Shown: one piece after another, positions 2,046 to 58,774 of the stretch
Layout: the number at the start of each line of letters is the position of its first letter
Position numbering within the stretch: the first letter of the stretch is position 1
Virus record (IMG/VR): IMGVR_UViG_3300049460_000371
Location: 23,354 to 87,353 of that record
Length of the DNA stretch: 64,000 bases
Source of the DNA: a virus
Direction: 5' to 3' (one strand)
The notes under the pieces: generated by a model
Told to the model about the DNA's origin: nothing
Databases searched by the model: none
The model's input: the letters and a program-made list of their open reading frames with translations, nothing else
Program-made: the position numbers and the translations under genes

Positions 2046-2308
2046 CCATTCCTGTTTCGTACGTCCGTGGTGTATTCAAATCAGTCACTGGTGCTGACGT
2101 AAACGATATTGTGATGTTCCTGTCGAGCGACCCCAAGAACGCATGGCTGCCTCGTAAGGTGAAAGCTGACACCCCATATCGTATCGTGTCTGTCGATGCA
2201 CAGGGTTGGACTCGTTTCATGAAATCCACATCGCACACTAGTATCGCGGGCTGCGAACCCATCCAGAACGGACGATACGTGATTGTTGCCCGCAATGTCC
2301 CGCACTAA
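2042..2308 (+). CDS. hypothetical protein
   Basis: ATGA coupling. Confidence 0.55.
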   Translation: MTIPVSYVRGVFKSVTGADVNDIVMFLSSDPKNAWLPRKVKADTPYRIVSVDAQGWTRFMKSTSHTSIAGCEPIQNGRYVIVARNVPH

Positions 2309-2368
2309 ATAGTTCTTGATGGTACATGATTAATCATGTACCATCTTTACCTCAACAAGGAGAACGTT

Positions 2369-2431
2369 ATGAAACGCATAATCGAAATTCGTGGCGCCGA
2401 AGGTGGCCAAGATTTCACTGACGTTTCTTAA
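2369..2431 (+). pseudogene. stranded original 5' end of release-factor gene (MKRIIEIRGAEGGQDF...)
   Basis: AAGGAG RBS; first 13 aa identical to ORF at 3364; interrupted by HEG. Confidence 0.8.
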
Positions 2432-3284
2432 GCATCTTCAATTCTGGGTTCGTGCGTTCAGTAATACGAACCAAGTTTTCCTGTTTAAAATTGCGCACAA
2501 TTGCTTGTAAGCAATAGCCGTACTGCGTGGCTATCTCTGTCCAAATAACACCGGACAACCTCATTTCGTTCATATTTTCTAATTCAACTTTTGGTATAGT
2601 CAACTTGTTGCTTGGTTCCATACCTTTCTTGAACTGAAAGCCATGGAGCTTATAGTTTTTCTGTCTATGAGCGATAGCCTCGTCAAAACGATCTTTACCA
2701 ACTATTTCTATTAGTGGTTTCTGGAGTGTTGTGCCTATTTTGGCTTTAATATTTTCGGATTTTTCTCCATATATTTCTTGATGTGTTTTATCTTTCAAAC
2801 GGGCAGAAGCATTATCTTTGATTATTTTGGCTCGCTCTTCACCATATTTTTCCACTAGAGTTTTTGACATGGCCGTGCGTACTTGATTCTTGTATTCGTC
2901 AGTGTGCATAGTATAACCAGGTTTTCCTTTATTCCATGGTGTTCTTCCAACAATACCTGAAACACCATCTCCACCATTGGTTTTGTTGTGTAAGCAACCA
3001 GTGCCCAAATCAATTCTACCGAAATATGATATCCAGTATTCTTCAAGCATGAATGCTGTTTCTTCTGGAATATTAGTTTCTATGAAGACGATCTGATCCA
3101 TATTACTTGGTATTCCTATAGAATGATTATTAGAATATGCGCGTTTACCCTTACCCTTCCCAATATAGTAAGGGCTTCCACGATCACCTCTTGGTGAATC
3201 ATGTTCACGTTTATACATGTAGACGTAGTAACTTGGTGTTAAGTCGTAGCTGGAATTGGCGTTTGAATTGCCATAAATAGACAT
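2415..3284 (-). CDS. free-standing GIY-YIG (Seg-like) homing endonuclease
   Basis: YYVYMY...PYYIGKGKGKRAY, LHNKTNGGDG, PWNKG NUMOD-like motif; AT-rich relative to flanks. Confidence 0.85.
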   Translation of the reverse strand: MSIYGNSNANSSYDLTPSYYVYMYKREHDSPRGDRGSPYYIGKGKGKRAYSNNHSIGIPSNMDQIVFIETNIPEETAFMLEEYWISYFGRIDLGTGCLHNKTNGGDGVSGIVGRTPWNKGKPGYTMHTDEYKNQVRTAMSKTLVEKYGEERAKIIKDNASARLKDKTHQEIYGEKSENIKAKIGTTLQKPLIEIVGKDRFDEAIAHRQKNYKLHGFQFKKGMEPSNKLTIPKVELENMNEMRLSGVIWTEIATQYGYCLQAIVRNFKQENLVRITERTNPELKMLKKRQ

Positions 3285-3363
3285 AGCTGATACTCCATGT
3301 TAGTATTAGAGCAGTTAGGAATTCCCGTTCCGTGAACTGCACAATATTTATCAAGGAGCTAAT

Positions 3364-4038
3364 ATGAAAAGAATTATTGAAATAAGAGGAGCTGAGGGCG
3401 GAGCCGATGCTCGACTGTTCGCTGCCGATCTGGCAAAAGCATACATCAAGCACGCATCCCGCGTCGGATGAATCAATCACCTCACCGATAACGGTGACGG
3501 CAATATCACCATCGAAATAACTGGTGATGATCTCTCAAAACTAGACAATGAAGCAGGCGGACATCGCATCCAGCGTGTGCCACCAACTGAACGCAAAGGT
3601 CGCGTCCACACCAGTACGGTAACCGTATCTGTGGTCGAACCCAAGAAAGCTCAGACTATCGAGTTCAATGAAAAAGACTTCTCGATTGAATGGTATTCTG
3701 GTACAGGTGCTGGTGGGCAACATCGCAACAAACATCAGAACTCATGTCGCATCACACACTTGGCTTCAGGTATTGTTGCTACTGCACAAACGAGAAGTCG
3801 CATCAACTCGTTGGATGAGGCAAAGACTGCCATCTTGGCAAAGTTGAATGCTGGTGCTTCAGCGGATGAGCAATCGCGGCAATCAAGTGAACGATTGAGT
3901 CAAACTGGTTCCGGTATGCGTGGCGACAAGACTCGCACTTACCGTTTCCAGGAAGATCAAGTGAAGGATCACATGACGGACAAATCAGCTTCCATCAGTA
4001 AAGTAATGGCTGGTAATTTTCACTTGCTCTGGCGTTAA
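3364..4038 (+). CDS. class I peptide chain release factor, RF1-like (PxT), lacking domain 1, with in-frame TGA at 3469-3471
   Basis: IEIRGAEGG, EAGGHRIQRVPPTERKGRVHTS, GAGGQHRNK, GSGMRGDKTRTY all in one frame; AAGGAG RBS. Confidence 0.88.
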
Positions 4039-4078
4039 TTTTTCATTAAAATGAGTCCCTCACACGAAGGACTCATTT

Positions 4079-4552
4079 ATGGACAAGAAAAAGCAACTCA
4101 AGTATTGGTCGATTGCAATCGGTGCTGTTCTGGCTTTCGGTGTGATCATAAAAACGCTGTCGCAGAAGCCCAAAGTGGTTGAACCTGCGCCGGTTGCCGC
4201 CGTGGTGCCCATAAAGCCCATCGAACCAGCACCAATGTCGAAGCCTGAAGAGGTGCAGGATCCCGACTTCAAGAACAAGCCCCACAGTTGTCCCGCTCCG
4301 GTGCCGGTCGATAAGGCATTAGCGGCGGTCAAACGTGGCAATAATCGTTCTGACAAGGTCTGCTACGACTCGGAAAGCAATCAATACTTTGTTCATTTTC
4401 CCAACAACGATGACGAGTTCTTCAGCGGCTGGTATCATATCCAGTACGACACCCTGAACAAAGCGGCAAACGGTACCTACTGGGTAGATGACCTCGATAG
4501 CGATCATTACACCCGCTTCTCACCAGACGTGACTGGTTTGCCATGTAAGTGA
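4079..4552 (+). CDS. membrane-anchored exported protein, paralog of 4589
   Basis: N-terminal TM, Pro-rich linker, VCYD...AANGTYW...PDVTGLPCK. Confidence 0.65.
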   Translation: MDKKKQLKYWSIAIGAVLAFGVIIKTLSQKPKVVEPAPVAAVVPIKPIEPAPMSKPEEVQDPDFKNKPHSCPAPVPVDKALAAVKRGNNRSDKVCYDSESNQYFVHFPNNDDEFFSGWYHIQYDTLNKAANGTYWVDDLDSDHYTRFSPDVTGLPCK

Positions 4553-9042: not shown

Positions 9043-10065
9043 ATGCTACTGCTTACCCGCCAACAATTCAATGACGCTGTATTCCAGCGCGACAAACACA
9101 AGTGCGTCGTGTGCGGGGCAACGAACGACTTGGCTGCCCACCACATTCTCGAGCGTCGTCTGTTTGACGATGGCGGGTACTATGTGGAAAACGGTGCTAC
9201 TGTCTGCCCTGAACATCACATGGAAGCAGAGATGACGACGCTGAGCGTGAAGAAAATTCGCGAACTGTGTGGGATCACCAATCCCGTTATGCCAGAGCAT
9301 TTTTACGTAGACGACGAGTACGATAAGTGGGGCAACACCATATTACCAAATGGTTCCCGCACTCGCGGCGAGCTATTTGAAGAAGAGCCTGTGCAGAAAA
9401 TGCTGAAAGCTGCTGGTGTCCTGGATAGTTTCCTGGAGATAGTCAAGTATTGCCGTACGTTCCACGCTACGTGGTCCCCTGGTTGTGAGGGCGATGACAA
9501 GATGCACAAGGCCATGACACAGTTTGTGGGCAAAGAATGTTACGCGTCGCAGAAACGTGATGGCGAAACCACAGCCTTGTATCCTAATAACTTCCATGCT
9601 CGTTCACTGGATGGTCGGCATCATCCAAGCCGCGACTGGGCAAAAGCGCTGTGGGGTCGTATTCGCTTTGACATTCCAGAAGGCTGGCGTATCAATGGCG
9701 AAAACTTGTACGCCCAGCATTCGATCGGCTACGATGACTTGACTTCGTACTTCGAGGTCTTCAGTATCTGGGACGAAAATAATCGCCGTTTGCCACTGGA
9801 TGACCAGTTGGAATGGTGCGAAATCTTGGGGCTGACTCATGTGCCAGTTGTATGGCGTGGCATTTACGACGAAGATGCCCTTAAAGCATTGCCAGTGACC
9901 TTGGGCTGGGATATGACCAAAGTTGAAGGCTATGTGATTTCGTTGGTCGAATCGTATCACTTCAGCCAAGCGCGTAAGAACCTGGCTAAGTACGTTCGCA
10001 AAAATCATGTACAGACAGGTGATCACTGGATGTTCCAGGCCATCACCCCGAACAAACTGAAATGA
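9043..10065 (+). CDS. HNH-nuclease domain fused to ATP-dependent RNA ligase
   Basis: N-term RDKHKCVVCG..AHHI..NGATVCPEHH; ligase motifs KRDGE, NGENLY, FEVFSI, EGYVI, KYVR. Confidence 0.8.
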   Translation: MLLLTRQQFNDAVFQRDKHKCVVCGATNDLAAHHILERRLFDDGGYYVENGATVCPEHHMEAEMTTLSVKKIRELCGITNPVMPEHFYVDDEYDKWGNTILPNGSRTRGELFEEEPVQKMLKAAGVLDSFLEIVKYCRTFHATWSPGCEGDDKMHKAMTQFVGKECYASQKRDGETTALYPNNFHARSLDGRHHPSRDWAKALWGRIRFDIPEGWRINGENLYAQHSIGYDDLTSYFEVFSIWDENNRRLPLDDQLEWCEILGLTHVPVVWRGIYDEDALKALPVTLGWDMTKVEGYVISLVESYHFSQARKNLAKYVRKNHVQTGDHWMFQAITPNKLK

Positions 10066-23027: not shown

Positions 23028-23960
23028 TCATACTGGAATCAAACAACGATCATATTGTGTCTGCCCAACATTAAGTACATGATGTGACACCGCGGTACCT
23101 GTAGTAGACTGATGATAATTTGAATCAACCAATACCGATGCCTTATCCATGTCATTCCACACAGTATTGCCGTACACCATTTTGATACCCAAAATACGAC
23201 CACGCAATTTGGCTATCGACGAGCCCAAAGCGGATGACAACATTTCCACCGCGGTCATAGTCAATGCCCCATTTTGAACAGAACCAGCAGCCAACGTACT
23301 TATTGGGTAACCACTTCCTGGCATTCCCAATGCGGTAACTACATTGTTATATGGAGTCGTAGAACTACCAGTCGTGAGGCCATTTGCTACACCACGTAAT
23401 GATCCAAAAAAACCAAACCCACCAGAATTGGGATAGATTATTTGATGTGTACCAATAAAGATATTGGTCGATATCGTATCGTCTTCGCCAAAGTCTTTAG
23501 CAATTTCAAATGATCCAAACAAGAAACCATATACTAACAAGTTTGAACGTAATCTAGTTGCAAGCCAGCGTTGATTGACAAACATTACAATGGCGGCACC
23601 ATCGGCTATTGTAATTGCTTGATTGCCGAATACCGAGCCAGAACCAGAACCAGTACTGTAGTAGGTGCCGTCGTTGGTACCAACGTGAGTAGTTGCATTC
23701 CACGATTCCCAAATCTTGAATAACATTGCGGTAGTGCTAAATGCGATTTGAACATACTTGTATGTTGATGCACTACCTTGTTGAAGAGTACGATATACTC
23801 GCCCGACCGTCAAACCGCCAGGGGCGGCGGCATCATACTGTGTCCAGCCCTTCGATACGATGTACGCATCGATTGCTGTCATGATTGATGCAGGTGTATC
23901 TGTCGCCGCCATTACAAACATGGACGAGTTTGGTCCTAAAATTGTTTCTACCATTGCCAT
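23028..23960 (-). CDS. putative tail fibre/virion protein, paralog of 24619
   Basis: 310 aa G/S/T-rich; shares ETILGPNSS, KIWESWN..THVGTNDGTYY, WNDMD, LIPV. Confidence 0.65.
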   Translation of the reverse strand: MAMVETILGPNSSMFVMAATDTPASIMTAIDAYIVSKGWTQYDAAAPGGLTVGRVYRTLQQGSASTYKYVQIAFSTTAMLFKIWESWNATTHVGTNDGTYYSTGSGSGSVFGNQAITIADGAAIVMFVNQRWLATRLRSNLLVYGFLFGSFEIAKDFGEDDTISTNIFIGTHQIIYPNSGGFGFFGSLRGVANGLTTGSSTTPYNNVVTALGMPGSGYPISTLAAGSVQNGALTMTAVEMLSSALGSSIAKLRGRILGIKMVYGNTVWNDMDKASVLVDSNYHQSTTGTAVSHHVLNVGQTQYDRCLIPV

Positions 23961-30601: not shown

Positions 30602-32662
30602 ATGACGGCCAAGATCAAGAAGGAAATGGCAGCGCTGGCCAAAGAGGTAGCGCGCCATCAAAAGCTGTATTACGAGGAGAATGACCCCGTAATTACGGAC
30701 GGCGAGTACGACGTCATGTATCGCCAACTGGTGGATCTGGAAGAGCAGTATCCCCAGTACAAAGTAAAGAACTCGCCAACCGACAACATCGGCGGCAAAC
30801 CGTCCGGCACCTTCACGGAGATCAAGCACCTGATCCCCATGCTGAGCCTGGGCAATAGTCTGAACGCGGCCGACACCCAGGTGTTCCTGGATAAAGTATG
30901 CGCCGAACTGAAGATCAAACCGGCCGCCCTCGAGCTGTACGAAGAACTCAAGTACGACGGCCTGTCGTGCTCTGCCACTTACCTGTATGGTAAGCTGGAA
31001 CAAGGCGCCACTCGCGGTGACGGTCTGACCGGCGAAGACATCACGGCCAACCTGAAAACTGTCCAAAACGTCCCACACGTCATCAACGAGCTCTTGGAAG
31101 TACCGCGCTTCGAGATTCGCGGCGAGGTACTGATGACGCGTGCGAGCTTCAAAGCCCTGAACGAACGTCAGGCCAAGCTCGGTGGCAAGATCTTCAGCAA
31201 TCCCCGCAATGCGGCCGCAGGTGCGCTGCGCAATAGCGACCCGGAGATCACTCGCGAGCGTGGACTGCACTTCTACGCCTACAGCCTGGGCGCATGCAGC
31301 GACGAAATCTATCCAAAAGTTGACGGCGGCATTTCGCCTGATCCATTCGGCGTGACCACGCAAGAGCAACTGCTGGCCAAGTTCGTCAGCCTGGGCTTTG
31401 TGACGGCTAGCGACCTGAAAGTCGTAACTGCTGACAAGGTGCTGGAAAGCTTCAAGGAAATTCAAGCCAAGCGTCCCGACCTGCCATACGAAATCGACGG
31501 CGTGGTATACAAGGTCAACAAGCTGGCCTATCAAGTTCAGCTGGGCTGGAAGTCGCGCACGCCTGAATGGGCAACCGCGTACAAGTTCCCGCCTGACACT
31601 GCTGAAACGGTGCTGCTGGCCATCGACATCCAGGTAGGTCGTACTGGTGCGCAGGCGCCGGTTGCTCGTGTAAAACCGGTCAAGTGCGGCGGGGTGATCG
31701 TAACCAACATCACCCTGCACAACATCGAAGAGATCACGCGCAAAGATATCCGCATTGGCGACACGCTGCTGATTATGCGTAACGGCGATGTGATTCCTGG
31801 TGTCAGCCATGTTATCAAGGACAAGCGCCCGGCAAACGCTGTCCCGTATGAAATGCCAGGCGTTTGCCCATCCTGCGGCGGCGCTACCCACAAGGAAGAC
31901 GACGGTGCGATCACGTATTGCCTCGCCGGCCTTGGCTGTCCTGCTCAAGTGTTGGGTGCAATTTCCCACTACGTTTCGCGCAAGGCCATGGACATTGACG
32001 GCATTGGCGACTCGACCATTCAGACGCTGCTGGATGCCAACCTGATCAAGATGCCAAGCGATCTGTACTCGCTGAAAAAAGAAGACGTGCTGGGCCTGGA
32101 AGGCTTTGGTGAGTCGTCGGCGGAGTTGCTGGTGAACGGCGTGCATGCGATCAAGAAACCAGAATTGCGTCGCTTCATTTACGCGCTGGGCATTCCCAAT
32201 ACGGGCGAGGGCACCAGCAAGCGCTTGGCTGAGCACTTCGGTTCGTTTGACAAGTTGCTGGCCGCAGCACACAATGAACTGATGGCGATCCCGGACATCG
32301 GCAAAACGACCGCCAGCAGCATAAGTGACTACCTGTTCGACCCAGTAACGGGCGTGGAAGCGCGCAAGCTGGCTAAGATCCTGGAGCCTCAAGATCTGGT
32401 CAAGGTCGACACCAGCGTGATGAAGCTGAAAGGTCAAACGTTCCTGGTCACTGGTACGCTGTCAGTGAAGCGCGACGTGATCCATAAGCTCATCGAAGAA
32501 AACGGCGGTGTGGTCGCTGGCTCGGTGAACAAGGATCTCAACTACTTGCTGGCTGGTGAAGAAGCGGGTAGCAAGCTGGAGAAAGCTGAGAAATTGAACG
32601 GCAGCAAAAAGGCAAATATCAGTATCATTACGGAAGAAATTTTCCGCTCAATGATCGCATAA
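30602..32662 (+). CDS. ligA: NAD-dependent DNA ligase
   Basis: ELKYDG, TRGDG, NPRNAAAG, EIDGVVYK, QVGRTG, Zn finger CPSC, HhH, BRCT. Confidence 0.97.
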   Translation: MTAKIKKEMAALAKEVARHQKLYYEENDPVITDGEYDVMYRQLVDLEEQYPQYKVKNSPTDNIGGKPSGTFTEIKHLIPMLSLGNSLNAADTQVFLDKVCAELKIKPAALELYEELKYDGLSCSATYLYGKLEQGATRGDGLTGEDITANLKTVQNVPHVINELLEVPRFEIRGEVLMTRASFKALNERQAKLGGKIFSNPRNAAAGALRNSDPEITRERGLHFYAYSLGACSDEIYPKVDGGISPDPFGVTTQEQLLAKFVSLGFVTASDLKVVTADKVLESFKEIQAKRPDLPYEIDGVVYKVNKLAYQVQLGWKSRTPEWATAYKFPPDTAETVLLAIDIQVGRTGAQAPVARVKPVKCGGVIVTNITLHNIEEITRKDIRIGDTLLIMRNGDVIPGVSHVIKDKRPANAVPYEMPGVCPSCGGATHKEDDGAITYCLAGLGCPAQVLGAISHYVSRKAMDIDGIGDSTIQTLLDANLIKMPSDLYSLKKEDVLGLEGFGESSAELLVNGVHAIKKPELRRFIYALGIPNTGEGTSKRLAEHFGSFDKLLAAAHNELMAIPDIGKTTASSISDYLFDPVTGVEARKLAKILEPQDLVKVDTSVMKLKGQTFLVTGTLSVKRDVIHKLIEENGGVVAGSVNKDLNYLLAGEEAGSKLEKAEKLNGSKKANISIITEEIFRSMIA

Positions 32663-54503: not shown

Positions 54504-54580
54504 TATCCAGTTCGTCTAGCGACTAGGACACTTGGGCTTTCAACCCTTGGACGCGAGTTTGAGTCTCGTACTGGATACCA
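54504..54580 (+). tRNA. tRNA-Glu(TTC), divergent
   Basis: TATCCAG/CTGGATA, loop CTTTCAA, CCA; weak anticodon stem. Confidence 0.7.
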
Positions 54581-54615
54581 AAACATTACATCTTCACTTG
54601 AGGGTTTAACGTTTT

Positions 54616-54708
54616 GGAGAGTAGGGCAGATGGTGACGCAAGCGGTCTTGAAAACCGTCCCACTGGGGCCAACCCCCGGTGACTGTTCGATTCAGTTATT
54701 CTCCTCCA
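54616..54708 (+). tRNA. tRNA-Ser(TGA)
   Basis: loop CTTGAAA, long variable arm, CCA. Confidence 0.85.
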
Positions 54709-54713
54709 GATTT

Positions 54714-54807
54714 GGTGAGTTGGCCGAGTTGGTCGAAGGCACTTTCCTGCTAAGAAAGCAAGTGATCAAAAATCGCTTCGTGGGTTCGAATCCCACACTC
54801 GCCGCCA
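54714..54807 (+). tRNA. tRNA-Ser(GCT)
   Basis: loop CTGCTAA, long variable arm, CCA. Confidence 0.92.
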
Positions 54808-54823
54808 AGTTTTAGTAGTACAT

Positions 54824-54910
54824 GCGTTTATAGACTCCTAAGGAGAGAGCACCGGCTGTAACCCGGTTGGCTATAAGCCCCGCAAAGTTCGATACTTTGT
54901 AGACGCACCA
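54824..54910 (+). tRNA. tRNA-Tyr(GTA)
   Basis: ACCGG-CTGTAAC-CCGGT, variable arm, ACCA. Confidence 0.85.
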
Positions 54911-54917
54911 AGTTTTT

Positions 54918-55001
54918 GTTTCTATCGTCTAGTGGTTTAGGACGGCGTTGTGGGGCCGGACTCCATAGGCTACACAGGTTCGATTCCTGTTGGAAACACC
55001 A
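54918..55001 (+). tRNA. atypical tRNA-like RNA, anticodon unassignable
   Basis: acceptor, D and T arms and CCA intact; no 7-nt anticodon loop. Confidence 0.55.
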
Positions 55002-55027
55002 AGTTTTTTGTAGTAAGGTAGTACCAT

Positions 55028-55104
55028 GTTTCGTTCGTCTAGCTGGCCTAGGACATCAGCCTTTCACGCTGAGTACACGGGTTCGAATCCCGTACGAAAC
55101 GCCA
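55028..55104 (+). tRNA. tRNA-Glu(TTC)
   Basis: TCAGC-CTTTCAC-GCTGA, CCA. Confidence 0.92.
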
Positions 55105-55146
55105 GTGACACAAATGCACGCTAAATATCAACTTTGAGGGTTGATT

Positions 55147-55827
55147 ATGCAGCGGGCAAATAGAAGAAAGTATCATTACATATATCGAACCACGTGTGTG
55201 GTTACGGGGAAATACTACCTGGGTATGCACAGCACGGATGACCTGCAAGATGGTTATATGGGGTCAGGTAAGCGACTTGGTTATTCCATGCGAAAGTATG
55301 GAATCGAAAATCATGTATGTGAGATATTAGAGCATTACTTCACCAGAGAATGGTTGAGGGAGCGCGAAGCGGAGTTAGTATGTGCGGAAACGCTAACTGA
55401 TCCGATGTGTATGAATCTTAAACTTGGTGGTTTGGGTGGGTTTGATCATATCATTAATGATAATATTAAACATAAGGCAAGCTCGGCATTAGGTGGTAAG
55501 ATTGGTAGTGCGAGTAACTGGGCAAATATCAAAAACGATCCTGAAAAATTGAATTTGATTAAAATGGCTGCTGCTATTAGATTTAAACAAATGCACAAAG
55601 ATGGTAAAGCAGGACAGAATACATTTTTAGGCAAAACGCATACTGAAGAAAGTAAACGTAAAATGCGTGAGGCAAAGAATGAATATGGACTAGGTACCAA
55701 CAATAGTCAATATGGTACTTGCTGGGTTACCAATTTTGATATTAACTGTTCGAAAAAGATACAAAAAGAAGAACTAGAGATATATATCCGTAATGGATGG
55801 ATTGTTGGTAGAAAGATTAAATTTTAG
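55147..55827 (+). CDS. GIY-YIG (Seg-like) homing endonuclease within tRNA array
   Basis: YIYRTT..TGKYYLGMHST..DGYMGSG; NUMOD3 FLGKTHTEESKRKM. Confidence 0.88.
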   Translation: MQRANRRKYHYIYRTTCVVTGKYYLGMHSTDDLQDGYMGSGKRLGYSMRKYGIENHVCEILEHYFTREWLREREAELVCAETLTDPMCMNLKLGGLGGFDHIINDNIKHKASSALGGKIGSASNWANIKNDPEKLNLIKMAAAIRFKQMHKDGKAGQNTFLGKTHTEESKRKMREAKNEYGLGTNNSQYGTCWVTNFDINCSKKIQKEELEIYIRNGWIVGRKIKF

Positions 55828-55877
55828 GATGTAGGACTTTTTGTTGGTTGGCTGTGTGACAAAAAGCGTAAGATCAT

Positions 55878-55969
55878 GTATGAGTGGTGCGAGTGGTTGA
55901 AGCCGTCTGACTGTAAATCAGAACTCACCGAAAGGGGGCGCGTAGGTTCGAATCCTACCTTATACACCA
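55878..55969 (+). tRNA. tRNA-Tyr(GTA)
   Basis: TCTGA-CTGTAAA-TCAGA, ACCA. Confidence 0.9.
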
Positions 55970-55986
55970 AGTTTCAAGAAGTACAT

Positions 55987-56071
55987 GCGTGGGTGGCCGA
56001 GTGGTTGAAGGCGACGGACTGTAAATCCGTTCTCAAAAAGCGCGATGGTTCGAATCCATCCCTACGCACCA
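55987..56071 (+). tRNA. tRNA-Tyr(GTA)
   Basis: ACGGA-CTGTAAA-TCCGT, ACCA. Confidence 0.92.
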
Positions 56072-56180
56072 GTTTTGCTTGGCTAGTAGAGGAAAGTGTG
56101 TTTAATCGGGGCCGCGAGCCTTTACTCCTCCCGAAGAACGGACATGGTTCCGTCTTTACACAGTGCAGTTTTGTTTCAAT

Positions 56181-56255
56181 ATTCCGTTCGACTTCGGGTG
56201 AGGTCAGCAGCCTTTCACGCTGCGTAGGTGGGTTCGAGCCCCATACGGAATACCA
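56181..56255 (+). tRNA. tRNA-Glu(TTC)
   Basis: GCAGC-CTTTCAC-GCTGC, CCA. Confidence 0.88.
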
Positions 56256-56262
56256 AGTTTTA

Positions 56263-56346
56263 GGACAGATGGGTGAGTGGCTGAAGCCGACGGACTGTAA
56301 ATCCGTTCTTAATTGCGCGCTGGTTCGAATCCAGCTCTGTCCACCA
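56263..56346 (+). tRNA. tRNA-Tyr(GTA)
   Basis: ACGGA-CTGTAAA-TCCGT, ACCA. Confidence 0.92.
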
Positions 56347-56550
56347 AGACGTCGTAGCACGTCAGTGTATCGTCCAGTTGAGCGCTCGACTGTATGTGTG
56401 TTCTGGCCCCAGTGGGAGCATTGGGGGTCGACTAGGGTCGGCCAATATCGCGGGTAGCCAATCCAGCGTACGAATGGGAAAAGGGTTCCAGACCATGCTG
56501 GCCTTTTCGACGGTGTAAAAACCCATGGAGAGGGATAGAAATGTCCCTCA
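56347..56550 (+). ncRNA. candidate structured ncRNA between tRNAs
   Basis: series of GC-rich hairpins, no credible ORF. Confidence 0.45.
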
Positions 56551-56552
56551 CT

Positions 56553-56628
56553 GCGGATGTAGCTCAGTTGGTAGAGCATCTGGTTGCCAATCAGAAGGTC
56601 ACGGGTTCGAACCCCGTTATCCGCTCCA
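56553..56628 (+). tRNA. tRNA-Gly(GCC)
   Basis: loop TTGCCAA, TCCA. Confidence 0.93.
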
Positions 56629-56664
56629 AGATTTCAGGCGTTGAGCTGACGCCTTAGTAGTAAA

Positions 56665-56723
56665 GCCGGGCAGAGTCCAATAGGGGACAGAGCTCCGTGG
56701 TTCAACTCCACCGCCCGGCTCCT
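56665..56723 (+). ncRNA. tRNA-like RNA lacking anticodon arm
   Basis: GCCGGGC/GCCCGGC acceptor, GTCC/GGAC D-arm, GTGG-TTCAACT-CCAC T-arm. Confidence 0.55.
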
Positions 56724-56735
56724 AGTATGTTTTGA

Positions 56736-56820
56736 GCGGGATTAGCTCAGTGGTAGAGCACTTGACTTCCAATCAAGAGGCGAATAGTTCACACCGGTTC
56801 GAACCCGGTATCCCGCTCAA
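56736..56820 (+). tRNA. tRNA-Gly(TCC) with extended variable region
   Basis: CTTGA-CTTCCAA-TCAAG; ends TCAA. Confidence 0.85.
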
Positions 56821-56830
56821 AACATATTTC

Positions 56831-56914
56831 GGATGCGTAAAGCTGGTGGTTCCACGCAGATGGTCTGTAAAACCGTTCCTTCGGGGAGTAGTTCGATTCT
56901 ACACGCATCCACCA
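56831..56914 (+). tRNA. tRNA-Tyr(GTA)
   Basis: ATGGT-CTGTAAA-ACCGT, ACCA. Confidence 0.85.
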
Positions 56915-57011
56915 TTACTAGGAGTTGAAAATGAATACCATTCTGATGATTCGAGGGCGAGGTTGAAACTAATCAAGTTTTCAATCTAACCATCAATCAT
57001 CAGAGGACAAA

Positions 57012-57770
57012 ATGGAATTCATCTATAACTTTAACGCGCTGCCGTTTTTGAACGAACAAGAGCTGATACTTAAAGAGTATCTAACAAAAACTATAGCGCT
57101 TCAGGTCAAAGCGATCCTGAAGAAACAAAACAGAGCTTGGGACTTGGTGCAAATTGAAGCGCCATGTTTGATCCCAAGGGAGCATGTAAATGCCAACTAC
57201 ACAGATGCAGATCTGTGGGTGCAACAAAGTCAGAACCACGCTGAATTGGTTCTGAAGCCTGAAACAACTGCTTCGTCGTATTTGTACTTGGAGCATCTGT
57301 TACGGCACAACGAGGTAATGCCTCCGGTAGCTGTTTGGCAAGTGTCCAAGAGCTTCCGTCGTGAGCAGGATCAAACGACAAAGAACTGTCGTTTTAAAGA
57401 GTTCTATCAGCAAGAGTTTCAGTGCCTGTACTCAGCTGATACTAAGAATGATTATCAGGCGAGTGTAATCGAAGATCTGGCAGCAATGCTCATGCGTATT
57501 GTGTGTTTGCCCACCAGGATAGTGTTAAGTGATCGACTGCCTGACTACTCGTTGAAGACGATCGATATTGAGGTCTGGAACAACGAGAAGTGGATGGAAA
57601 TCTGTAGTGTGTCAACACGCAAGGATTTCACGTTCAAGCCGTCATTCAAGAACAAGCAAGTTGAATGTTTGGTGTTGGAGATTGCGATCGGCGTCGAACG
57701 TTTGATCTACAACATTAGCAAGCGTGAAAGCGTATTTGAAAATCTTCGGGTTGAGAATACGTTGAAGTAG
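57012..57770 (+). CDS. glycyl-tRNA synthetase-like class II aaRS catalytic domain (alpha2 type, truncated)
   Basis: LKPETT, QVSKSFRRE, RFKEFYQQEFQ, PDYS..TIDIE, EICSVSTRKDF, EIAIGVERL. Confidence 0.8.
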   Translation: MEFIYNFNALPFLNEQELILKEYLTKTIALQVKAILKKQNRAWDLVQIEAPCLIPREHVNANYTDADLWVQQSQNHAELVLKPETTASSYLYLEHLLRHNEVMPPVAVWQVSKSFRREQDQTTKNCRFKEFYQQEFQCLYSADTKNDYQASVIEDLAAMLMRIVCLPTRIVLSDRLPDYSLKTIDIEVWNNEKWMEICSVSTRKDFTFKPSFKNKQVECLVLEIAIGVERLIYNISKRESVFENLRVENTLK

Positions 57771-57799
57771 AAGTAACGGGGGCCTTGTGCCCCTTGAAT

Positions 57800-57891
57800 G
57801 GAAAATTGGCTGAGCGGTCTAAGGCAGCGTCTTGGAAAGGCGTCGATTCAGGTAACTGGGTCCATGGGTTCGAATCCCATATTTTCCTCCA
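57800..57891 (+). tRNA. tRNA-Ser(GGA)
   Basis: loop TTGGAAA, long variable arm, CCA. Confidence 0.9.
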
Positions 57892-57892
57892 T

Positions 57893-57979
57893 GGTGATGT
57901 GCCCGAGTGGTCGAAGGGGACGGATTGCAAACCCGTATGCGAAAGCGCGCCGTGAGTTCGAATCTCACTGTCACCTCCA
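57893..57979 (+). tRNA. tRNA-Cys(GCA) with long variable arm
   Basis: loop TTGCAAA, U73, CCA. Confidence 0.8.
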
Positions 57980-57995
57980 AGTTTGAGATATTTGC

Positions 57996-58080
57996 AGAAG
58001 ATTGGTCGAGTGGCCGATGACAGCTGATTGCTAATCAGTAGACTAGAAATGGTCCGAGGGTTCGAATCCCTCATCTTCTG
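57996..58080 (+). tRNA. tRNA-Ser(GCT)
   Basis: GCTGA-TTGCTAA-TCAGT, variable arm; no encoded CCA. Confidence 0.85.
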
Positions 58081-58099
58081 CAAATATTTTAAAGGTTAC

Positions 58100-58189
58100 G
58101 GCGGGTAGAGTATACGGTGTACAAGCAGCCTCGAAAACTGTTCCACTTGGTGATCCCAGGTGATGGTTCAATTCCATTACCCGCCTCCA
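58100..58189 (+). tRNA. tRNA-Ser(CGA)
   Basis: loop CTCGAAA, long variable arm, CCA. Confidence 0.8.
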
Positions 58190-58277
58190 GTATTAAACAT
58201 GGCACATCGTTATTGTGTTGCTTAATTGGTTAAGTGAATGTACTATATGAGGCAATGTTACCTCATAGGAGTATTAA

Positions 58278-58529
58278 ATGAAAACCGTAATTTGCAGCAT
58301 CTCGATGAAGATGCCCCACAAGGTTCCTGTGGAAAAATGCCAAGGCTCGTTGTCTGACGCACGTCATCTGTATGGTGAATACGCCTACTGGCATGGTAAC
58401 AACTCGAGCGGCTGGCATGCACTGCCAGTACCAGATGTTGAATACGTGACTTGCTTGGAACACAGTTTGAGCAAGTTTGTAGTTGAGGAAGACGAGGCGA
58501 AGCGCTTCGGTTTGACCTATAAAGTTTAA
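58278..58529 (+). CDS. hypothetical protein inside tRNA array
   Basis: AGGAG RBS. Confidence 0.55.
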   Translation: MKTVICSISMKMPHKVPVEKCQGSLSDARHLYGEYAYWHGNNSSGWHALPVPDVEYVTCLEHSLSKFVVEEDEAKRFGLTYKV

Positions 58530-58530
58530 T

Positions 58531-58607
58531 GCAGGTATAGCTCAGTCTGGTAGAGCGCAACGTTGCCAACGTTGAGGCCACGAGTTCGAACCTCGTTACC
58601 TGCTCCA
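58531..58607 (+). tRNA. tRNA-Gly(GCC)
   Basis: CAACG-TTGCCAA-CGTTG, TCCA. Confidence 0.93.
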
Positions 58608-58616
58608 AGTTTCAAA

Positions 58617-58693
58617 GTCTATGTCGTCTAGCGGCCTAGGACCCCTGATTCTCAGTCAGGACAACGTGGGTTCAAATCCCATCATAGACTCCA
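58617..58693 (+). tRNA. tRNA-Glu(CTC)
   Basis: CCTGA-TTCTCAG-TCAGG, CCA. Confidence 0.9.
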
Positions 58694-58700
58694 GTTTCAT

Positions 58701-58774
58701 GTAGGTTTAGCCAAGCGGCCCGGCATCGGATTGCAAACCCGACTAGACGAGTTCAACTCTCGTAACCTACTCCA
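58701..58774 (+). tRNA. tRNA-Cys(GCA)
   Basis: loop TTGCAAA, TCCA. Confidence 0.88.

Follow-up and report, generated by a model that had tools for sequence, protein, structure and literature searches.

We analyzed a gene for a short release factor that carries a stop codon inside its reading frame and lies in a 64,000-nt stretch of DNA from a large soil phage (hereafter the window; positions 23,354 to 87,353 of IMG/VR record IMGVR_UViG_3300049460_000371, the parent record being a single 87,353-bp contig). The frame of this gene leads from ATG 3364-3366 to TAA 4036-4038 with no shift and holds a single in-frame TGA, at 3469-3471 (Table 1). An earlier note, made from the sequence alone, had described one frame running from this ATG through the TGA to a GGQ motif, with A as the base after the TGA, and the sequence reads exactly so. 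Among cultured and GenBank phages, blastn found no close relative and tblastn matches were all under 41% identity. A promoter scan of positions 2200-4200 returned 5 matches as compared to 4.5 expected.

Translated through the UGA, the 224-residue product matches the Pfam families PCRF (PF03462; E = 2.6e-23, 83.3 bits), where the match corresponds to the C-terminal half of the family, and RF-1 (PF00472; E = 4e-18, 65.9 bits). RF1 is the nearest NCBIfam profile (NF001859 / TIGR00019; positions 107-332 of 347 covered), with scores below the RF1 equivalog cut-offs (189.2 as compared to 400 bits and 185.2 as compared to 423.25 bits); the RF2 score was 115 bits, and PrfH (TIGR03072) was matched by residues 96-195 (the GGQ domain) alone, with 49.9 bits as compared to a cut-off of 166.65. 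Phmmer searches against the PDB gave E-values of approx. 1e-37 for RF1 chains and approx. 1e-20 for RF2. When aligned with E. coli RF1 (5o2r_v; E = 5.5e-38), the TGA ('...ikhasrvgW') falls on the Trp of '...sryaearrW', the position to which the earlier note had assigned it, and the PPT motif falls on the PAT motif of the E. coli protein. The match begins at position 107 of the RF1 profile and, in the PDB chains of RF1 (360 aa), at residue 112, so that domain 1, of about 105 residues, is missing; the open reading frame (ORF) starts at residue 1 with its own Shine-Dalgarno (SD)-like site.

Structure prediction pointed in the same direction. An AlphaFold2 model built from 62 homologs, among which P73, P74 and T75 as well as G117, G118 and Q119 are invariant, reached a predicted local distance difference test (pLDDT) value of 86.1 and a predicted template modeling (pTM) score of 0.71, and a Foldseek search with this model returned ribosome-bound RF1 as the top match (9mtr_1w; TM-score TMq 0.85), with RF2 at approx. 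0.80 and PrfH (9mor_A) at 0.64. Since phmmer, NCBIfam and structure comparisons all match RF1, the gene, by its sequence and modeled fold, is one for an RF1-type class-I factor composed of domains 2 to 4 without domain 1, in keeping with the domain-1-less factor recognized earlier. The tripeptide PxT (x being any residue) is reportedly the determinant of UAA/UAG specificity, and the phage factor is accordingly predicted to be of the UAA/UAG type.

Table 1. Features of the release-factor locus (positions in the window)
Feature	Position	Strand	Remarks
SD-like AAGGAG	3353..3358	+	5 nt ahead of ATG 3364; read in sequence
Whole gene for RF1-type release factor without domain 1	3364..4038	+	224 codons if TGA36 is decoded, then TAA
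N-terminal 35 codons, 5' of the stop	3364..3468	+	Model strand 2-11 and helix 13-34
In-frame TGA, codon 36	3469..3471	+	Context GGA-TGA-A; aligned with RF1 Trp
C-terminal 188 codons with PPT and GGQ	3472..4035	+	Translation, homolog alignment
Local hairpin TCACCG-ATAA-CGGTGA	3482..3497	+	10 nt 3' of TGA
PPT motif	3580-3588	+	Residues 73-75
GGQ motif	3712-3720	+	Residues 117-119
TAA terminator of the release-factor gene	4036..4038	+	Sequence
Relic 5' end of the gene, first copy (MKRIIEIRGAEGGQD)	2369..2413	+	Own SD; cut after codon 15
950-bp insertion between the two 5' ends	2414-3363		
Antisense 289-aa ORF in the insertion	2415..3284	-	Possible homing endonuclease, family unconfirmed

The conservation of the internal stop was assessed in homologs from IMG/VR. 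Three scans of viral contigs yielded 170 loci, many of them in records of 340-524 kb; with the window these make 171 sequences, of which 161 were scored by script, representing 110 distinct genes. The earlier note had raised the possibility that homologs carry TGG at codon 36, and this codon was found to be TGA in 110/110 distinct genes and TGG in none. The 10 loci that were not scored (L003, L287 and L288 to L295) also have a stop at this site. The remaining Trp codons, analyzed in 74 distinct genes, are all TGG (155/155), and TGG also stands at each of the other two conserved Trp positions (73/73 and 74/74 genes). The 35 codons upstream of the stop showed a ratio of nonsynonymous to synonymous differences (pN/pS) of 0.287, with a pS of 0.756 that places synonymous sites close to saturation (71 distinct sequences), and the 20 codons after the TGA showed a pN/pS of 0.60. 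Positions 3300-4100 are identical, over all 801 bases, in the Logan assembly of the run that is probably the source, and this does not represent independent support. These data show that the TGA at codon 36 (TGA36) is conserved and selected and reflects neither error nor decay.

Initiation signals are likewise placed ahead of the stop. Of 81 genes, 73 have an ATG 35 codons ahead of the stop, and in 68 an SD-like tetramer precedes the equivalent start. The 35 codons after the stop contain no in-frame ATG, GTG or TTG in 47/81 genes and no ATG in 79/81; in the window, the earliest in-frame start after the TGA is GTG 3577, which lies within the decoding region. A product started 3' of the stop would miss both the first strand and the long helix of the model, as both are encoded before the TGA.

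We also assessed whether the stop is read in the context of a standard genetic code. Under code 11, ORFs chosen greedily cover 90% of the 87,353-bp contig (G000) and 90-93% of the genomes examined. Of 135 such ORFs in the contig with 80 aa or more, 56 are closed by TGA, which bears out the earlier statement that the code is not globally reassigned, and the median in-frame extension past these TGA codons is 12.5 codons, similar to that past TAA and TAG. In complete relatives TGA closes 138/267 long ORFs (G004) and 118/370 long ORFs (G001); across the contig and these two genomes the share of long ORFs ending in TGA ranges from 32 to 52%, with median extensions past TGA of 12-19 codons. A strict scan for stop-gated genes, i.e., genes in which a single stop separates a short SD-led upstream piece from a long downstream piece that has no start close by, found the release-factor gene as the sole credible case in the contig and three complete relatives (G001, G003 and G005), and five complete relatives each carry exactly one gated release-factor gene with a single TGA. 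The genome is thus standard-coded and the UGA recoding is specific to this gene. Because homologs keep the TGA and the genome uses the standard code, the UGA must be read for a full-length, decoding-competent factor to be made, as had been claimed before.

The sequence around TGA36 is also biased. The base after the TGA is A in 78, G in 22, C in 10 and T in none of the 110 genes, and the preceding codon is GGN in 108/110 genes. Termination is strongest when U follows the stop codon, and release at UGA is less efficient after a C-terminal Gly; the context of TGA36 fits weak termination. Of 74 distinct genes of the family, 68 themselves terminate with TAA, 4 with TGA and 2 with TAG, although TGA closes 32-52% of the long ORFs in the carrier genomes; the gated gene thus seems to avoid TGA as its own terminator.

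The hairpin that the earlier note had described 10 nt downstream of the TGA is present in the window, where the 45-nt segment that follows the TGA has a folding energy of -10.6 kcal/mol (z = -1.98 as compared to synonymous resampling), and it does not extend to the family as a whole. The same 45 nt had a mean z of -1.04 across the family, with 15% of genes below -2, and ranked at the 33rd percentile (0.33) of folding among windows of the same genes; RNAalifold placed zero consensus pairs on 65 distinct segments of 108 nt. A hand-drawn stem (alignment columns 40-48/55-64) had 76.7% of its cells paired as compared to 23-46% when slid along the alignment, this stem being derived from the consensus and overlying conserved Arg and Gly-Glu codons. 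No Rfam family, including the selenocysteine insertion sequence (SECIS) families, matched positions 3300-4100 at E ≤ 10. The hairpin is therefore real in the window and is not established as part of a mechanism.

Overall, we propose, with a probability of roughly 0.6, that this gene is controlled by programmed, gene-specific read-through of UGA36, such that supply of the factor would vary inversely with termination at UGA by RF2. Ribosomes would initiate at ATG 3364 and synthesize 35 residues, i.e., the first strand and the helix that open the decoding domain. At UGA36, host RF2 would mostly terminate translation and release a useless 35-residue peptide, while a minority of ribosomes would decode the UGA in frame, most likely with near-cognate Trp-tRNA, which would put the ancestral Trp back, and would run on to TAA 4036 to complete the 224-residue factor. 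As RF2 and the decoding tRNA would compete for the codon and thereby set the yield, the supply of a UAA/UAG-type factor would go up when termination at UGA is weak and down when it is strong. The proposal builds on a stop that is conserved and selected, in a continuous frame that is constrained on both sides and sits in a standard-coded genome, and on a product modeled with an RF1 fold; on the ribosome, this product could serve in ordinary UAA/UAG termination, as a back-up or in rescue. The observation of the earlier note is confirmed, and its interpretation is supported in part, as regards the domain-1-less RF1-type factor, the Trp position, the standard code and the need for the UGA to be read; synthesis only at low host RF2 activity and a role in ribosome rescue are predictions of that note.

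The tRNA genes of the contig and its relatives bear on what decodes the UGA. None of the 21 tRNAs of the 87-kb contig, itself a fragment of a larger genome, is a Trp tRNA and none has a UCA anticodon; 19 tRNA genes form an array at 54505-58774 of the window that serves solely Glu, Ser, Tyr, Gly and Cys, with many in multiple copies and of 83-94 nt in length, and one that ARAGORN left unassigned. Using the same program, we surveyed four complete relatives with terminal repeats (342-524 kb). G004 contains two tRNA(UCA) genes in addition to tRNA-Trp(CCA), G001 contains one tRNA(UCA) and no tRNA-Trp(CCA), G003 contains no tRNA(UCA) and two tRNA(CUA) genes, and G005 contains no tRNA(UCA), one tRNA(CUA) and tRNA-Trp(CCA). 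All four encode a transfer-messenger RNA (tmRNA) and have 41-60 ARAGORN genes per genome, tmRNA included. The suppressor tRNA regions lie at 198905-200005 (G004), 182959-190591 (G001), 124199-126759 (G003) and 361980-363482 (G005), with a distance between suppressor tRNA and tmRNA of no more than approx. 1 kb in G004 and G005, approx. 7 kb in G001 and more than 30 kb in G003. The tRNA(UCA) genes are 77 nt long, which is an ordinary tRNA size, and the tRNAs most similar to them (likeness 0.77) are tRNA-Arg(UCU) and other non-Trp tRNAs.

One alternative suggested by these genes is a suppressor-tRNA switch, in which a phage tRNA(UCA) reads the UGA, the factor appears only after this tRNA has built up, and the stop acts as a timer within infection rather than as a sensor of host RF2. 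This would account for the tRNA(UCA) genes of G004, which lie beside the tmRNA gene, and of G001, where tRNA-Trp(CCA) is lacking; as both phages otherwise end ORFs in TGA, a gene-specific suppressor target is plausible, and the window belongs to a genome that, judging from its relatives, is probably much larger than the contig. Yet G003 and G005, which have tRNA(CUA) instead, as well as the contig show no tRNA(UCA) by a program that may miss unusual tRNAs, and the TGA is kept in phages without tRNA(UCA) and in homologs on bacterial chromosomes. We thus regard a suppressor-tRNA switch as unlikely. Near-cognate Trp-tRNA would be the only decoding route that every carrier shares, and would bring back the ancestral residue; leaky decoding of UGA as Trp is stated in the accessible text of PMC7918605.

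When prokaryote genomes were searched, one from each species, 10 bacterial assemblies (L207, L208, L209 and L211-L217) proved to contain this short RF1-type gene, and all of these closest bacterial-assembly homologs (10/10) keep TGA at the equivalent codon. The carriers belong to the Alphaproteobacteria and, in a few cases, to other bacteria; they include isolates of Jiella, Thalassospira, Pararhizobium and Rhodovibrio. In Jiella the gated gene is surrounded by housekeeping genes (LytB/IspH, phosphotransferase, RNase H, redoxin) and is located between the rnhA-like and redoxin genes, with no obvious prophage. Five of five bacterial genomes with the gated gene also contain one prfA-like gene (364-374 aa) and one prfB-like gene (356-359 aa), both of full length. 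Other short release-factor genes from this search carry CTT-TGA-C (L219, L228, L223 and L226), CTT-TGA-G (L280) or TGG followed by CTT-TAG-C (L210), after which the frame is lost; by their sequence, these appear to be prfB-style +1 shift sites, one of them in an amber version. In Pararhizobium, three fragments of 103-110 aa that consist of the GGQ domain only adjoin the gated gene (G008:C3:958508-961005). Among AT-rich uncultured phages of 630-735 kb (LR745206, LR756504 and LR756501; L201-L205), distant RF1-like genes of 33-36% identity have one or two in-frame TGA codons a few codons from the codon-36 site; the 50-kb flanks in LR756504 and LR756501 show 81-86% ORF coverage and tentatively look broadly like code 11.

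A second possibility is that the UGA acts as a plain throttle, which fixes a low yield because a domain-1-less factor may be harmful in excess, and conveys no regulatory information. The early position of the stop, the shortness of the upstream peptide and the finding of no conserved stimulatory RNA structure would all be compatible with this. A weak ribosome-binding site or promoter would, however, serve equally well and would drift, yet TGA is fixed in every distinct gene scored and the SD-like site is kept in most. The related short factors with prfB-like CTT-TGA-C or CTT-TAG-C in the same region also speak against a throttle, and the prfB shift site is a regulatory device. A plain throttle therefore appears slightly less probable still than suppression by a phage tRNA.

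The remaining explanations fare considerably worse. The gene could be split into a 35-residue peptide and a separately initiated C-terminal protein, possibly assembled non-covalently, and the stop does lie between a helix and a strand of the model; the scarcity of start codons after the stop, together with the location of the window's first start, GTG 3577, in the region of the decoding motif, makes this very improbable. Reading of TGA as Trp throughout or in part of the genome (code 4), as in recoded gut phages, could be suggested by full-length database proteins with W at the site and by the RF1 genes reported in the accessible text on TGA-recoded Jade phages (10.1101/2021.08.26.457843). These W-bearing proteins are all on contigs of at most 5.8 kb, on which gene callers presumably picked code 4, while database entries for homologs on larger contigs (7.6 to 430 kb) give lengths of 172-184 aa; code 4 can be dismissed, with hardly any probability left to it, because TGA is an ordinary terminator both in the genome and in two complete relatives, ORF coverage under code 11 is high and the scan found no second credible TGA-interrupted gene. 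A pseudogene, recent nonsense mutation or sequencing error, which the splitting or shortening of the gene by gene callers might suggest, has a negligible probability given the invariant TGA, purifying selection on both sides, the identical Logan contig and TGG at the other Trp codons. Overall, the conservation, selection, start-codon and model data exclude error, decay and a split gene for practical purposes. Insertion of selenocysteine, to which the hairpin and the label 'SeC' given by ARAGORN to the relatives' tRNA(UCA) might point, is equally negligible, as RF1 has a Trp at this position, the hairpin is not shared across the family, no SECIS match was found and the tRNA(UCA) genes are of 77 nt.

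Several points weigh against UGA read-through in competition with RF2. A PxT factor should not read UGA, so that control by RF2 would at best be cross-regulation, and the benefit to the phage is conjecture. The hairpin, a potential stimulator of read-through, is not conserved in the family. As two of the four complete relatives encode tRNA(UCA), dedicated suppression rather than leaky near-cognate reading may operate in some phages, and a tRNA(UCA) gene could be located elsewhere in the genome of which the contig is a fragment. By sequence likeness, these tRNA(UCA) do not appear to be derived from Trp tRNAs, which makes the inserted residue uncertain where they act. Lastly, no RNA run is listed as containing the stretch, and one DNA run is, probably the source sample.

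The region immediately upstream of the gene contains a second, incomplete copy of its 5' end, separated from the working copy by an insertion with an antisense ORF (Table 1). The relic and the working copy at 3364 share their first 13 residues with different codons, and the DNA of the relic looks closer to that of the relative L001 than the working copy does, as judged by eye on the alignment, identities not being counted. The antisense ORF showed no Pfam match at E ≤ 0.01 and no PDB sequence match at E ≤ 1, and matched only PHROGs of unknown function. This arrangement fits a mobile endonuclease gene that arrived with a recoded replacement of its target, and the duplicated 5' end shows that the segment 5' of the UGA was worth restoring. 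Among other genes, an Rnl-type RNA ligase (PF09414) is encoded at 9043-10065, 5 kb downstream, with an HNH-like N-terminal part (PHROG 24030, 9.5e-120), and an NAD-dependent DNA ligase at 30602-32662 of the window.

The gene can be compared with a number of known systems. Synthesis of RF2 from prfB is reportedly autoregulated by a +1 frameshift at an early UGA, in the context CUU UGA C and with an upstream SD-like element. Both prfB and the phage gene encode class-I release factors and have an early conserved UGA at which termination must fail for the full-length product to be made, so that the supply of a release factor depends on release-factor activity. The phage gene, unlike prfB, continues in frame 0, as in read-through, has the context GGA-UGA-A rather than CUU-UGA-C and shows no SD-like element before the TGA of the window. 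Moreover, its predicted product is of the PxT type and should not read UGA, so that RF2 would exert cross-regulation as opposed to autoregulation. The A1 protein of RNA phage Q-beta is made by leaky read-through of a UGA as Trp, and the passage proposed here, in frame and by near-cognate Trp-tRNA to a minor longer product, would be similar. The UGA of Q-beta, however, ends a complete protein and both products are functional, whereas the short product of the phage gene would be a 35-residue fragment and Trp would restore a conserved residue inside a domain.

PrfH (RF-H) is a domain-1-less release-factor paralog coupled to RtcB, according to the accessible text of PMC6514570, which describes no in-frame stop for prfH. 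Like PrfH, the phage factor has no N-terminal domain and still contains a decoding-like domain and GGQ; it differs from PrfH in its sub-threshold profile score (49.9 as compared to 166.65), in its lower structural similarity to PrfH than to RF1 (TMq 0.64 as compared to 0.85) and in retaining PxT. No rtcB neighbor was found among the flanking ORFs scanned, which did not cover all small ORFs. In the accessible text of 10.1101/2021.08.26.457843, the TGA-recoded Jade phages have code-change modules of suppressor tRNA, tryptophanyl-tRNA synthetase and RF1, and share with the phages studied here an RF1-type gene linked to UGA decoding, with tRNA(UCA) present in some of our relatives. The Jade modules are described there as written in standard code without internal stops, with many TGA-containing genes elsewhere in the genome, whereas in the standard-coded genome studied here the internal TGA is confined to the release-factor gene itself. 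A literature search turned up no report of an RF1-type gene, be it from a phage or of the short bacterial kind, with an in-frame UGA in the texts covered, which included papers on huge phages and on stop recoding; the supplements by Borges et al. and Al-Shayeb et al., which tabulate release-factor genes of phages and might be relevant, lay outside the search, and the main text of the release-factor survey by Burroughs and Aravind does not contain 'phage', 'in-frame', 'frameshift' or 'readthrough'.

Tentatively, and with clearly less confidence than for the gene studied here, stop gating might hold as a rule across the domain-1-less release factors of both phages and bacteria, served by interchangeable devices in the early gene region (UGA read-through, or a +1 shift at CUU-UGA-C or CUU-UAG-C). 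An RF1-type factor would then be a read-out of failing RF2 termination that acts as a back-up or in rescue, and large phages may have acquired the circuit from hosts resembling Alphaproteobacteria in order to sustain termination in the cells they infect. ArfA is made when tmRNA is overwhelmed, and a back-up factor that is switched on when the primary system falters would, by analogy, follow a similar logic.

Overall, these data indicate that a phage release-factor gene carries a real, conserved and gene-specific recoding signal, which, as read from sequence, represents a new variation on prfB-like control with a regulatory meaning that is predicted. The gated gene, which is kept in more than 100 phage genes as well as in bacterial chromosomes, is mis-annotated, as gene callers break it or apply the wrong code. 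It may also provide a natural, compact reporter of the efficiency of UGA termination, and it raises the question of why large phages bring their own termination factor. RF2 is the textbook translation factor that controls its own synthesis through an internal stop codon; if the proposed reading is true, the gene described here would be a second and mechanistically distinct case, in which read-through rather than a frameshift places an RF1-type factor under the cross-control of the factor that reads UGA.

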